From IMG/VR virus record IMGVR_UViG_3300030329_003696, positions 64,001 through 128,000 of that record: DNA of 64,000 nucleotides. One strand, written 5' to 3'. A program made the position numbers and the translations under genes. The notes under the pieces are model-generated. The model worked only from the letters and a program-made list of their open reading frames with translations, had not been told where the DNA came from and did not search any database. The DNA comes from a virus. Shown here in pieces: positions 39,502 through 52,051 of this stretch (the stretch's first letter is position 1; every line of letters begins with the position of its first letter).

Positions 39502-39682
39502 CAAATCCGGGGGGGCCCGGCCGCAGCCGGTGTCAACCCCTATTCTTCAAAAAAACAGGAAATAGACCAGAAAAAAATCACCATCAAAATTAGCTGTATC
39601 ATACCCTACCATCCCACTGAAGTTATAAAAACCCCAAGCGGCCAAATGGCCGCAAGGGGTAACACAACAGAAAGGGGTAAGG

Positions 39683-40600
39683 TTAGGCCGCAAGTTCCAA
39701 AGCGAGCTTCTCAGCCGCCTTGACCTCTTGCGAGTTGGATGCACGCAGGATTCGATCAAAGTCACCCTTGAAACCCTCCTTCGCCTGTGCGTCGTGTTGG
39801 ACGTAGCCCTGAATAGCGTTGTATGCTTCCCAAGCGGAAACCACATTGGTCATCGCTGGACGACCTGTCAGGTTACGCTCACGATTAAGACGCTTCCAGA
39901 TTGCCTCAGTACGATTTTGGTGAGTAGTCACCGCACGCACTCGCTCGCCACGGGCTGCACGATCCAGTTGATCCTGATCAGGACGACCATAGATAGAATC
40001 GAGAAACTCAGTCATGCGAACCTCAGTAGATTCGAGACGGTCAATAACATCGGTCAGGGTAGACCAGCTATTTTTGAGGGTCTCAAATGTTGAGATCAAT
40101 TCGTCCATGTTGGCACGCAATCCGGAAGTGTGACGAATGGAAACGGTTGTACCGTTCACCATACGCATCATCGCCAGATTACTACACGCATCACGGAAAT
40201 AACCCATAGTGGCGGTAAACGCTTTACCGTCATAACCAGCGTTAATCATCACGCGAGGCCATACGTTATCCGTATCACGATCCTTGAAAATCGAACGACG
40301 ATCTTCAGCGGTTGGTTGAATGGACACATAGTGACCACTACGGAAGTGAGTATTGCAAGCAATCTCACCATCGAACGCCTCACCAGCGGCATCGACCAAC
40401 GCACAAACGTCATCAGTCGTATGGGGAACGTAGCGAGGGGAAACGGACTTCACGCCCTTGAGATAACCCGTATCAGAACGGAACAAGCCGTACTGGTCAG
40501 TCGGCATATGATCCGGGCCAAACAGTGGAAACTTGTCAACGGTGAAATCGAAAGCGGAACGAACGGAAGCTGAAACGTCAGCAGATTGAATGTTAGTCAT
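39683..40600 (-). CDS. DUF932-family protein
   Basis: FRSDTG..GV..VS.RY, NAGYDG, FRDACSNL, SIRHT, SAWEAYNAI. Confidence 0.75.
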   Translation of the reverse strand: MTNIQSADVSASVRSAFDFTVDKFPLFGPDHMPTDQYGLFRSDTGYLKGVKSVSPRYVPHTTDDVCALVDAAGEAFDGEIACNTHFRSGHYVSIQPTAEDRRSIFKDRDTDNVWPRVMINAGYDGKAFTATMGYFRDACSNLAMMRMVNGTTVSIRHTSGLRANMDELISTFETLKNSWSTLTDVIDRLESTEVRMTEFLDSIYGRPDQDQLDRAARGERVRAVTTHQNRTEAIWKRLNRERNLTGRPAMTNVVSAWEAYNAIQGYVQHDAQAKEGFKGDFDRILRASNSQEVKAAEKLALELAA

Positions 40601-40927
40601 AGTAAAACCTTTCTGAAATGTGTGAAACTAACTTACTCTCTCATTATAATATATATCGGCTAGATGTCAATGGGGACTTGAGCTTTTTTTGGATTTTTTT
40701 TATTCCGGACTTTTTTGGCTTTTTTAGCATTTTCCCTCTTGACAAACGACCCGGCCGGGGGGGCCCGGATTCCAAGGTCAACCGGCGACCCTCATGTTGG
40801 CGATGAGAGATCTATTTGAATCCTGTTACCCCGTCGCCCTCTTCTCATCTTACAGTTACCGTTGTTAGCGTAAGACGGCGGGCAGGCAACCAACATAAAG
40901 GTCAACCGGCATCTCTTGAAAGGAATA

Positions 40928-41158
40928 CTAATCCTCGTGAGGCATTGTACAATATACTTCGTAAGGTGTAGCGGCATAGGTCATCTGTGAATGGTCATCT
41001 TCCCACCATCCTACAAACCCCTTCACCCCACCACCAGAAGCAACTTCAAAGCAAGCGATGCGGTCGTTCGTTTGCTCCGCCAGTTTGCAAGTGCCTTCTT
41101 CACGAATAATTTTTCTTACAAAGTTGTTAAATCTAACAACGCTTCCTACTTTGTCCAC
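40928..41158 (-). CDS. hypothetical protein
   Basis: likely GTG start coupled to upstream stop. Confidence 0.55.
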   Translation of the reverse strand: MDKVGSVVRFNNFVRKIIREEGTCKLAEQTNDRIACFEVASGGGVKGFVGWWEDDHSQMTYAATPYEVYCTMPHED

Positions 41159-41159
41159 G

Positions 41160-41531
41160 TTACCACCAGCTACTATACACAACGGTATAGCCTTTCTTAA
41201 TTGCCGCACGAGCCTCACGGATGAACTCACGGTCTTGCTCTGCGTAATATTCTTCAGAGTTTTCCCCGAAGAAGAAACCTACTGTCTCTGGTAGGGCGTT
41301 TTCGTCCAGAGCTTCTTCCATGCTGTCCAAGTCCCCAAGTGTCAATTCGACATCGACACAATTAAACTCACCATCTCCACCCTTTTCACGGTAGAGTTCT
41401 TCCATCCACCCCTGCAAACTAGGGTGCTTTCGCCAGTAGGCCAGTTCCATACTGTCCTCGTAGTAAGTGTAGCCATCTTCGTCCTTCTTAGCTTCGCCAC
41501 GTCGTGCGGATGCGTATTGGTCAAGTCCCAT
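41160..41531 (-). CDS. conserved phage protein
   Basis: MGLDQY...YWRKH..LQGW...FNC...GFFFG...YSSWW. Confidence 0.8.
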   Translation of the reverse strand: MGLDQYASARRGEAKKDEDGYTYYEDSMELAYWRKHPSLQGWMEELYREKGGDGEFNCVDVELTLGDLDSMEEALDENALPETVGFFFGENSEEYYAEQDREFIREARAAIKKGYTVVYSSWW

Positions 41532-41603
41532 AATTTTACCTTTCAAAAAGTAGTGTTGGTTATACTGTATATTCTAACATACAATTATTGTATGTCAAGT
41601 GGT

Positions 41604-42071
41604 CTAATGAAAAAATGGTGGTTTATGACTGAAGGCCATTACTGCATTGTCGAGGATTGACAAGTCAGCATAGTCAGCGTTTTCTATTGGGCTTGCGTCG
41701 TACTGCTTGATGAACGTGTCACAGGTGTATGGGTTGTAGTAAACTTTTTCCCATCGTGTTTCGCCGTTGTCGATCTGCTCATCAGTGAGATGACCGTCAA
41801 CTTTTTGGTCGGTCGTACGAGTATCAACCACATAGCCCTCAATAAACGCATGTACGTTTTTCTTCTGTTCATCCCTGACTCTCCTTTGTCCTGCCTTGGA
41901 CACAATGAATTGACAACTTCTCAACGTAACATTTTCTGCATGACAGCGAACGATGCCGCCTTGCTTAACGCTGTAGCAATCTCGATGCAGGTTGCGATAG
42001 ACTCGCACCTTCTTGGTTGGGTCGATATGCTCCGCAATCTGGAAGCTTTTTTGTGTTCGTGGTTTCTTCAT
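41604..42071 (-). CDS. conserved phage protein
   Basis: VYRNLH...VSKAGQRRV..EQKKNVHAF...YNPY. Confidence 0.8.
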   Translation of the reverse strand: MKKPRTQKSFQIAEHIDPTKKVRVYRNLHRDCYSVKQGGIVRCHAENVTLRSCQFIVSKAGQRRVRDEQKKNVHAFIEGYVVDTRTTDQKVDGHLTDEQIDNGETRWEKVYYNPYTCDTFIKQYDASPIENADYADLSILDNAVMAFSHKPPFFH

Positions 42072-42368
42072 AACTTATCCTTTCGTGTTACCCTTCCATT
42101 ATATTATATATATCGTCATAGTCAAGGGGTCGGCATTAACTTTTTCTGGCTTTTTTCTAATCTTTTTTTACTGAGAACCAGTCTCAACAACCAAACCGGG
42201 GCCGCCCGGATTTGCCCGCCGCGTCAATCCGGCTGGAATGAGTAAGACACCGCCACCGGCTGAGACTACCCCAACCGGCAGCGGCGTATATAAAAAAAAT
42301 AAAAAATAGCGGTTACCTTTTATCCTCACCACCTATACCGCAAGGTCAGTGGTGCGGGTCATAGCGTC

Positions 42369-50546: not shown

Positions 50547-50732
50547 TTTCCTTTGTGTTGTGTTTTTGTTATGCTTCTATTATACATAGATCGGCAGAAA
50601 TGTCAATAGGCTTTAGCTAAAAATCCAGAAAAAAAGCAAAGTTTTTCCGGGGCCGCCCGGATCGCCCAGGTGTCAACAGTAAATCTGGTCTTTTTGTCGA
50701 AGTACTGTGACGCCCCTAGGCGATTGGTTAGG

Positions 50733-51014
50733 CTAAGACGGCAAGCATCCGTCAACTATACCACCGTGAGCGTCAAGCTCTGCCTGTACTACCTCAATCG
50801 GCACGAAACCATAAACGGTCTCGGTGTAGTCGCTAGTACCGCACAGCTCTGCATAGTTGCGTAGCTCTGCTGTCTTTGGTGTAGTGGTAGGAAATCCACA
50901 CTCTACAGTAAGCAGGTTGCCTGCTGTGTTACGTTGGCAGTAGCTACCATCGTGAGCCTGTACGCTGATATTAAAGCCATCGTTGCAAGTGATTCTAGGA
51001 TTGTGATTGTACAT
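50733..51014 (-). CDS. conserved phage protein
   Basis: CNDGFNISVQA...YC...VECGFP...TVYGFVP...HGG. Confidence 0.75.
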   Translation of the reverse strand: MYNHNPRITCNDGFNISVQAHDGSYCQRNTAGNLLTVECGFPTTTPKTAELRNYAELCGTSDYTETVYGFVPIEVVQAELDAHGGIVDGCLPS

Positions 51015-51130
51015 AAGATAAACCTTTTCTAGTATAGTGTAGTTGTGTTGGCCATTGTTATTCTCTTAGGCTTGAGTGGTTATTGTTATAGTGTTAAACC
51101 TTCACTCAGGAATAGCTACACGCTACCCAT

Positions 51131-51364
51131 CTACTCGTTGGCGGTTCCGTACTTCTCGAAGTATCGACGCATAGCGTCCATCTTGGATTGCGGTACTTCC
51201 GTAACGCTGATAGTCTCAACGTCATTATGATAATGATTGTAACGGAAGCGGGTTTCACCGTGTTCGTTGGTGAATAGCGAATCCTGCCCAACAGTGCAGA
51301 ATGTAGTTTCTCGACCTGTTACTGGGTGTATAGCCAGAACGTCAAAGTTTTTTTTGTTAGTCAT
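51131..51364 (-). CDS. hypothetical protein
   Basis: RBS and own promoter. Confidence 0.6.
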   Translation of the reverse strand: MTNKKNFDVLAIHPVTGRETTFCTVGQDSLFTNEHGETRFRYNHYHNDVETISVTEVPQSKMDAMRRYFEKYGTANE

Positions 51365-51443
51365 ATTGTTACCTTTCGTGAATGACTGTTGTGTGTTATG
51401 CTTTAAGTATACCATACTTATCGGCGTTTGTCAAGTGGTTTCT

Positions 51444-51614
51444 TTAACTATTCATGATATTTTTTAGAATATCTTTTCTAGCCCAAAGCACTTCCAATTC
51501 GTTCATTATCTCAGTTTTCTTATAGCGTGAACGTGCGTTGGCGTGTTCGTTGACTTTCGCTTCAATTTGTCGGTTAGTCGTGAACAGTTTCAGTTTAGCT
51601 TCGTTGCGAGTCAT
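51444..51614 (-). CDS. 56-aa helical protein
   Basis: manual translation MTRNEAKLKL..; RBS GAAAGGA and promoter. Confidence 0.6.
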   Translation of the reverse strand: MTRNEAKLKLFTTNRQIEAKVNEHANARSRYKKTEIMNELEVLWARKDILKNIMNS

Positions 51615-51698
51615 GTTGTGTTCCTTTCGAGAACGTTGTTTAATTGTTATGTCTTAAGTATATTATATATATCGGCAAAAGTCAATAGCAATCTTTAA

Positions 51699-51797
51699 TT
51701 ATTTTCCAAGAATATTAAAATAAATTATGTGTCCGATTAAACCTGCGAAAGCTGTTACTGTGCCGATTGTTACGATTGTTGTTGCGATGATTGTCAT
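51699..51797 (-). CDS. 32-aa membrane peptide (..HIIYFNILGK)
   Basis: manual translation; own promoter and RBS. Confidence 0.65.
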   Translation of the reverse strand: MTIIATTIVTIGTVTAFAGLIGHIIYFNILGK

Positions 51798-52051
51798 AGT
51801 TAACCTTTCGTTGTTGTTTGTTATGCTTTAAGTATATCATAAAGATCGGCACTTGTCAATAGTAAACTGAAATAATTCTGAAAAAAAACAGAAAAAATCT
51901 GATCCGGGCCCCCCCAGCTTATGTGGTGGGTGTTTTATCTTCGATGTCAATCTACTTTTCAATAAGAAAAAAGCCCTAGGTGGTTCAGTCACAATTCGGA
52001 GCACTCTCTAGGGTTGTCTTACCTAAACCACACCATTAAAGTAAATAGGTA

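Follow-up and report, generated by a model that had tools for sequence, protein, structure and literature searches.

The stretch of DNA analysed here, 64,000 bp long and referred to below as the window, corresponds to bases 64001-128000 of a complete phage record of 166,833 bp with overlapping ends (IMG/VR record IMGVR_UViG_3300030329_003696). What is taken to be the early (hyperplastic) region, at 39400-53300, contains small minus-strand genes preceded by some 25 near-consensus sigma70 promoters on that strand; between 36 and 54 kb, 21 promoters agree with the consensus at 11-12 of 12 positions. Ten short GC-rich dyads punctuate this region. They are the subject of the present work, and comparison with related loci makes it very probable that they are cassette boundaries and crossover sites. 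On the same comparison they are read as a reduced form of a DNA element which is found throughout this phage family and marks the start of each early gene block; the chances appear about even that this element has a promoter-phased architectural role.

The core of the dyads, CCGGG-N4-CCCGG, occurs at the ten places given in a first-pass annotation of this DNA, nine copies being exact and that at 51904 carrying one mismatch. None is expected by chance (100 dinucleotide shuffles) and, as had been noticed, the core is restricted to the early region: no exact copy is present elsewhere in the genome, and a genome-wide search allowing one mismatch adds only an overlapping match at 46914 and an unrelated site 48 kb beyond the window. 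The ten cores provide 10 of the genome's 11 GC-only runs of at least 12 bp. Their N4 takes two sequences in both orientations (GGGG three times and CCCC once; GCCG and CGGC three times each), and successive copies are 847-1736 bp apart, close to the 0.85-1.75 kb first given. The flanking arms were also largely described correctly, with TGTCAA 10 bp to the right of the core in seven copies and TTGAC(A/T) 9-10 bp to the left in three. The complete two-armed dyad of about 46 bp attributed to three copies is present at 43879 and 45615 but not at 40755, where the right arm is GGTCAA at 7 bp. No Rfam match was found within 36-54 kb. Identical cores are present in six further assemblies of the same phage (99.98-100% identity), and this agreement rules out an assembly artefact.

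In the direction of early transcription, core 1 (51904-51917, the copy with a mismatch) precedes a -35 at 51859, 51.5 bp from the core centre, and core 2 (50647-50660), with an upstream -35-like arm at 50671-50676, precedes one at 50606. Core 3 (49352-49365, arm 49376-49381) and core 4 (48505-48518, arm 48529-48534, next -35 at 48460) share a duplicated upstream flank, so that the features extend over 49352-49422 and 48505-48573; the roughly 45-bp duplication already reported (48529-48573 and 49376-49422) is real, with 43 of 47 columns identical, and there is a second one between 43873-43916 and 45609-45652 (42 of 44 identical). Core 5 (46904-46917, arm 46928-46933, next -35 at 46860) is the upstream border of a translocated block described below. 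Core 6 (45615-45628) lies between two inward-facing arms (45600-45605 and 45639-45644), and relatives carry a box resembling an integration host factor (IHF) site at the place of the downstream arm. Core 7 (43879-43892; 43863-43908 with both arms) has a separate terminator-like hairpin upstream (43943-43965). Core 8 (42196-42209), also with a separate long hairpin upstream, is the sole copy whose stem is immediately followed by a T-rich run. Core 9 (40755-40768), with an inverted downstream arm (40739-40744), lies ahead of the promoter of a DUF932 gene (-35 at 40670), and core 10 (39507-39520, arm 39531-39536) follows a further separate terminator-like hairpin located after the DUF932 stop codon (about 39630-39660).

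Related loci were gathered with three early proteins and a DNA pattern. A search of IMG/VR for the exact core-plus-TGTCAA pattern returned mostly single chance matches, L010 being the only relative. Relatives do not have the exact 14-mer, and in most of them the same junctions hold a larger element composed of two boxes separated by a GC-rich linker. The box is a 29-bp palindrome, CGTAAGTC(C/G)TT-N7-AA(C/G)GACTTACG, whose centre is fixed at N7 (65 matches at N7 and 0 at N3-6 and N8-11). From box to box the commonest period is 53 bp, and smaller classes occur at 50-52 and 40-42 bp; these correspond to five or four helical turns. In each of five whole related genomes the boxes are limited to a single region of 7-18 kb, and in relatives the paired boxes are repeated 10-16 times. 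The central 8 bp of the linker is 94% G+C, and the core words of the window are among the commonest there.

Several properties lead us to regard the boxes of the relatives as predicted IHF-type sites. The full IHF consensus, WATCAANNNNTTR, is present in 132 of 806 distinct boxes, often on both strands, compared with 13.7 after shuffling of the 7-bp centre, and 338 boxes lie within one mismatch of it. IHF makes two kinks 9 bp apart (10.1101/382655), and the TT-N7-AA frame would fit these, the mapping onto the box being our own. Single boxes in bacteria are found no more than 11 bp from a tRNA or tmRNA end in 7 of 53 loci, one is next to a phage integrase and several are next to a DDE insertion sequence (IS) transposase, all of them settings typical of IHF sites. 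Planctomycete and verrucomicrobial genomes encode HU/IHF proteins with an IHF-beta-like (R)xExR segment which aligns with ERIEIRG of E. coli IHF; residues of this segment of IHF-beta are involved in reading TTR. A homodimer of such a host protein would explain the symmetry of the box. No HU/IHF gene was found in the window phage or its relatives. The two arms of the box do not covary (0.736 for the true pairs and 0.751 when re-dealt), and the box is therefore not an RNA stem. An identity with dif/Xer sites was set aside on comparison with the dif consensus, in which the inner ends are opposite and the spacer is N6 rather than N7.

The closest relatives have one box or none per junction. Boxes are also few or missing altogether at the loci L232, L032 and L031, each of which has a distinct style of core. 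No box match was obtained in the 166,833 bp of the window genome, with the score threshold set far lower than the scores of the relatives. Because junctions carry two, one or no boxes while the core persists, the core is, as judged from these alignments, the constant part of the element and the arms are replaceable. On the same grounds the window lineage is taken to have lost every box and kept the GC core, which is partly flanked by -35-like hexamers. In the box-less locus L031 (2230-9600), the cores are perfect dyads, A6 - G/C run - T6, spaced every 1.1-1.5 kb or so and near the consensus of the promoter-early-stem-loop (PeSL) stem of phage nt-1.

The proposal that the dyads delimit exchangeable cassettes was borne out by gene order. 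Genes inside a core-bounded block mostly stay together and blocks are reordered at the elements: a break in order is seen at 26 of the 35 dyad junctions compared with 8 of the 66 others. The clearest example is the block at 45629-46903 (minus strand), which in the window and L232 stands in one order with its neighbour (46918-48504) and in the remaining close relatives in the other, a swap bounded by the cores at 45615, 46904 and 48505. In most comparisons homology to the downstream block starts 11-15 bp past the core centre. Within genomes, the 29 bp around the core have an identity of 0.66 compared with 0.52 at orthologous junctions, the flank showing the reverse, and left and right flanks are shared in a patchwork manner among core copies. 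Homogenised cores together with patchwork flanks point to repeated copying between elements, as far as such comparisons allow.

One agent of exchange would be a dedicated site-specific system, in which IHF bends flank a crossover core and an unrecognised phage or host recombinase excises, inserts or inverts cassettes. In lambda attP, the H2 and H' sites frame the core in this way, and the IHF-core-IHF layout of the relatives with its rigid 53-bp period, the location of order changes at the elements, the onset of downstream homology close to the core and the mosaic flanks would all suit such a system. We nevertheless consider it unlikely. No tyrosine or serine recombinase (PF00589, PF00239) was detected in the complete window genome and no PF00589 protein in five relatives, host XerC/D lying outside this test. 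The asymmetric spacer on which the first-pass annotation based its recombinase varies among copies in relatives; cores differ within a genome and partner sites share no overlap sequence. No block is inverted in 17 related loci although both core orientations occur, boxes can be lost, and promoter phasing (see below) is not expected of a pure crossover site. Site-specific flipping is thus unsupported, and the apparent flip of the spacer is explained by a pseudo-symmetric core centre which occurs in both orientations. Since neither an integrase or resolvase nor an inverted block was found, RecA-type exchange at short repeats would be the simpler agent. A candidate for this is the phage RecA-family recombinase (2287-3411, minus strand; PF00154, E 1e-22), whose role here is proposed.

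The wording of the cores follows the words that each genome avoids. The window genome, from which GCGC is absent, uses CCGG/GGCC cores, and where CCGG is missing the locus has GCGC/CGCG cores (Spearman 0.72 for GCGC, 52 loci), with a residual preference for GGCC, GCNGC and G runs. This fits a physical role or a sequence-tolerant reader. A polar signal of the Chi or KOPS type was ruled out, the cores being present in both orientations and in many words.

It is rather unlikely that the cores act as RNA, that is, as intrinsic terminators or attenuators of the ordinary PeSL stem-loop type. In the window the core can fold into a GC stem of 5 bp closed by a 4-nt loop, the cores sit between transcription units, the L031 core (A6-G-run-C3-T6) is like the nt-1 PeSL stem and three cores are called by a terminator scan; PeSL stems carry poly-G...poly-C and do terminate (PMC2839356). 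The scan as a whole, however, gave 24 terminator-like sites, a number close to the 15.8 expected by chance. A T run directly follows the stem in only one of ten copies, and after a 5-nt gap in about three. Folding z scores are unremarkable in 8 of 10 window cores and average -0.28 over 203 linkers of relatives, the box arms lack the covariation of an RNA stem, and separate, stronger hairpins occur upstream of 39507, 42196 and 43879. The core is thus, on this evidence, not a conserved hairpin. Of the earlier suggestion that the dyads bind a protein, what stands is that they look like protein-binding sites on DNA and not like plain terminators.

A second set of observations relates the elements to promoters. 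In relatives the paired boxes and the sigma70 promoter that follows them keep to one helical register, as measured on the sequences: distances from the centre of the promoter-proximal box to the -35 peak at 43, 54, 64 and 74 bp, with a period of 10.5-10.7 (R 0.48, n=172). Box-less cores pooled over four genomes have a similar phase (R 0.47, p 0.0045), those of L232, L032 and L031 clustering near 50, 71, 82 and 92 bp, near the family phase. All but one of the ten window cores are followed, at 47-92 bp, by a near-consensus promoter. The cores mark only about 10 of the 25 promoters and are evenly spaced, their intervals having a coefficient of variation of 0.19 compared with 0.74 for random promoter subsets (P 0.0003); in relatives the median interval between elements is 1.1 kb (n=192) and 3.6% exceed 2.2 kb. 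A/T tracts around the window cores are weakly phased (P 0.007 upstream and 0.03 downstream).

That the dyads serve as RNA polymerase decoys with a -35 alone, or as promoters whose GC-rich -10 is read by a phage sigma factor, is very improbable. TTGACA lies exactly 10 bp upstream of seven cores, which places the -10 position inside the core; the arms share the sequence context of ordinary phage -35 elements, and in most of 45 unrelated phage matches a real promoter begins with this context. Arms are also retained in a few close relatives and the phage encodes two sigma-like proteins. However, the would-be -10 flips with core orientation, the arm offset ranges from 17 to 25 bp across genomes, three window cores have no arm at that spacing, and most relatives have boxes in place of arms, the latter occupying the position of the inner half of a box. 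The decoy idea of the first-pass annotation thus accounts for the arms, which are lineage-specific, and not for the IHF-type boxes found instead in most relatives. The arms may be promoter remnants recruited to this position.

Equally improbable is a role as strong sites for gyrase or topoisomerase IV, or as patches that counter silencing, in the relief of supercoils or silencing in a promoter-dense region: the even spacing, the weak A/T-tract phasing and the precedent of E. coli bacterial interspersed mosaic elements (BIMEs), which pair GC-rich repeats with IHF or gyrase sites at the ends of transcription units (PMC3333891, PMC6379681), are in keeping with this, but a GC-only core centred on the cut cannot, in a comparison by eye, supply the A/T bases of the E. 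coli type II topoisomerase motif (-4G/+8C, -2A/+6T and -1T/+5A around a 4-bp stagger; PMC10117906), IHF bound at 26 bp from the centre would occupy part of the gyrase wrap, and no H-NS was found in five incomplete candidate-host genomes.

The reading that we prefer is that of a cassette border with an additional, promoter-phased architectural role, this second part being about evenly poised. The element would act as double-stranded DNA. A host homodimer of the IHF-beta-like type would bend both boxes and so present the GC core on a fixed face upstream of the lead promoter of each block, creating a nucleoprotein node every 1.4 kb or so which would set up or insulate strong early promoters. In genomes without boxes the core would keep part of this function, A/T tracts or -35-like hexamers replacing the boxes. 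Since the elements are the main intergenic repeats, the phage RecA-like system would cross over at them, with the result that blocks are swapped and cores copied, as for PeSLs. A bolder version, which we consider speculative and doubtful, is that the GC core is the docking site of an undescribed, sequence-tolerant protein which reads GC. This would form a regular lattice of promoter-phased nodes, one per 1-1.7 kb, on the first-expressed DNA; arms (host IHF boxes, A/T tracts or -35 half-promoters) would be interchangeable and nodes would pair to exchange blocks without an integrase.

A number of points weigh against this interpretation. The window genome is free of boxes, so that the IHF part does not directly apply to it, and the box model was derived from the loci to which it is applied. 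The breakpoint counts are not independent, as one and the same phage accounts for three of the seven close loci and a single swap enters the counts several times; about five independent genomes underlie them, and their P value is therefore overstated. Some blocks have moved at promoter-only junctions. Core homogenisation could reflect a genome-specific binding protein rather than recombination. The nine core-to-promoter distances of the window itself are looser and not significantly phased (R 0.19, p 0.73), and for the core at 49352 the nearest promoter-like site is some 250 bp away. Finally, the phasing and spacing statistics count related sequences more than once.

Among known systems the closest are the PeSL cassettes of the T4-type phages RB49/phi1, PST/T4 and nt-1/KVP40, whose authors speculated that the GGGG...CCCC motif binds a protein (PMC2839356, PMC4122927). 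Both are repeated intergenic units of a hyperplastic early region with poly-G/poly-C content and adjoining strong sigma70 promoters; in both, gene gain, loss and shuffling map to the units and no dedicated recombinase is known. In the window phage and five related genomes the elements likewise lie between small, variable genes of a single 7-18 kb region. In contrast to PeSLs, the hairpin of the window core is not conserved and a U tract is absent from most copies; the core accompanies a minority of promoters at even intervals, and in relatives it is framed by two phased IHF-type boxes. The window phage is moreover not T4-like, having a DnaE-type polymerase and a putative capsid protein without PHROGs or Pfam match. 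The element therefore appears PeSL-like as cassette border and crossover point, yet not a PeSL member: a conserved stem-loop is wanting and IHF-type phasing is added. The window contributes a version of the element without boxes, a core that nevertheless persists, and regular intervals. PeSL studies left undecided whether the G/C motif at the border is only a terminator or also a protein-bound site. This phage family separates the parts, with a core persisting without hairpin conservation and IHF-type arms which come and go. Its two-, one- and no-box versions of the same junction constitute a natural series of variants for binding and reporter tests, and the regular intervals suggest that early phage DNA is under a physical constraint which gene content does not explain.

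IHF sites are found in lambda attP (H', H1, H2) and upstream of phage early promoters such as lambda pL and Mu Pe. The boxes of the relatives resemble these in consensus, in the 9-bp kink geometry, in promoter phasing and in their single occurrence beside tRNA ends and an integrase in bacteria. They differ in being symmetric (TTR on both sides), paired 53 bp apart around a GC-only linker and repeated, in the lack of integrase arm or core sites and in their absence from the window genome. A second parallel is BIME-1 or RIB of E. coli, in which two repetitive extragenic palindromic (REP) sequences flank an IHF site and for which topological roles have been proposed (PMC3333891). These too are repeated intergenic composites of GC-rich DNA and IHF sites near the ends of transcription units. 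The layout in the relatives is the inverse (IHF - GC - IHF), the window has no box, no REP hairpin or GTAG tetranucleotide was seen, and the elements are confined to one phage region.

The window phage has been assembled from several marine metagenomes, including Tara Oceans. It encodes a split DnaE-type polymerase, the RecA-family protein, rIIA/rIIB-like genes, tRNAs, a tmRNA and the two sigma-like proteins (54196-54711, plus strand; 14673-15140, minus strand). The former lies just beyond the strand switch, has a Sigma70_r2 cluster match in the Atlas and is kept beside the early region family-wide. No isolated relative was found among 50,697 phage records (megablast with the early region as query, tblastn with one late protein), and our literature search found no description of this marine phage group or its elements. 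The host is likely a planctomycete of the Pirellulales, since one of the phage-encoded DUF1501 proteins is closest to Pirellulales proteins (59-61% identity in two genomes and 36% to a verrucomicrobial protein, five genomes compared). The elements thus add to the cis-element biology of large marine phages of probable planctomycete hosts. Two DUF1501 genes (L003, 17051-18292; L004, 1273-2532; genome 55-60 kb) have twin-arginine-type leaders, typical of planctomycetes; a third, similar open reading frame (ORF) lies between the two, and environmental homologs are numerous. GCGC does not occur in the 166,833 bp, and CGCG (observed/expected 0.32), CCNGG (0.32) and GGNCC (0.45) are also depleted genome-wide, a pattern suggesting that restriction systems of the host are strongly avoided. 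In some freshwater relatives the avoided word is CCGG rather than GCGC.

Paired or clustered boxes were also seen on contigs of GTDB bacterial bins (L052, L055, L059, L065, L075, L077, L080, L099, L106 and L107). Most of these also carry homologs of early genes of the window phage and several share one Planctomycetaceae bin; they are probably phage DNA mis-binned into metagenome-assembled genomes.

Some further features of the window may be recorded. Most early promoters between 30183 and 51859 (minus strand) share a (G)CCGAT(A) block in the spacer, often with TAAAG about 17 bp upstream of it, a pair which we take to resemble a sigma28-type promoter overlaid on the sigma70 one, with a spacing exceeding the usual 15. 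An ORF-poor unit at 43600-43760 (minus strand) is served by a separate consensus promoter (-35 at 43796) and closes with a T-arm-like segment and CCA; its position is conserved in relatives, ARAGORN and Rfam gave no call, and it is possibly a degenerate tRNA-like RNA. The roughly 290 nt at 45210-45495 (minus strand), without a long ORF, preceded by a perfect promoter (-35 at 45533) and 84-87% conserved in several relatives, are a candidate non-coding RNA without Rfam match. The gene at 49421-49945 (minus strand), which is at a different junction in L232, encodes a 174-amino-acid early protein with a D-x(n)-EVK motif as in PD-(D/E)XK nucleases, no Pfam or PHROG match and a weak Atlas lead to the Bsp6I restriction endonuclease family. 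The idea that it targets GCNGC in the cores was dropped, this word not being avoided in the genome (observed/expected 1.38), and is also weakened by the faintness of the lead and by the presence of the gene in one of 17 related loci. Finally, tandem Pro-Glu-Pro-Thr/Ala repeats are encoded at 37716-37815, inside an ORF of 74 amino acids (37664-37888, minus strand).

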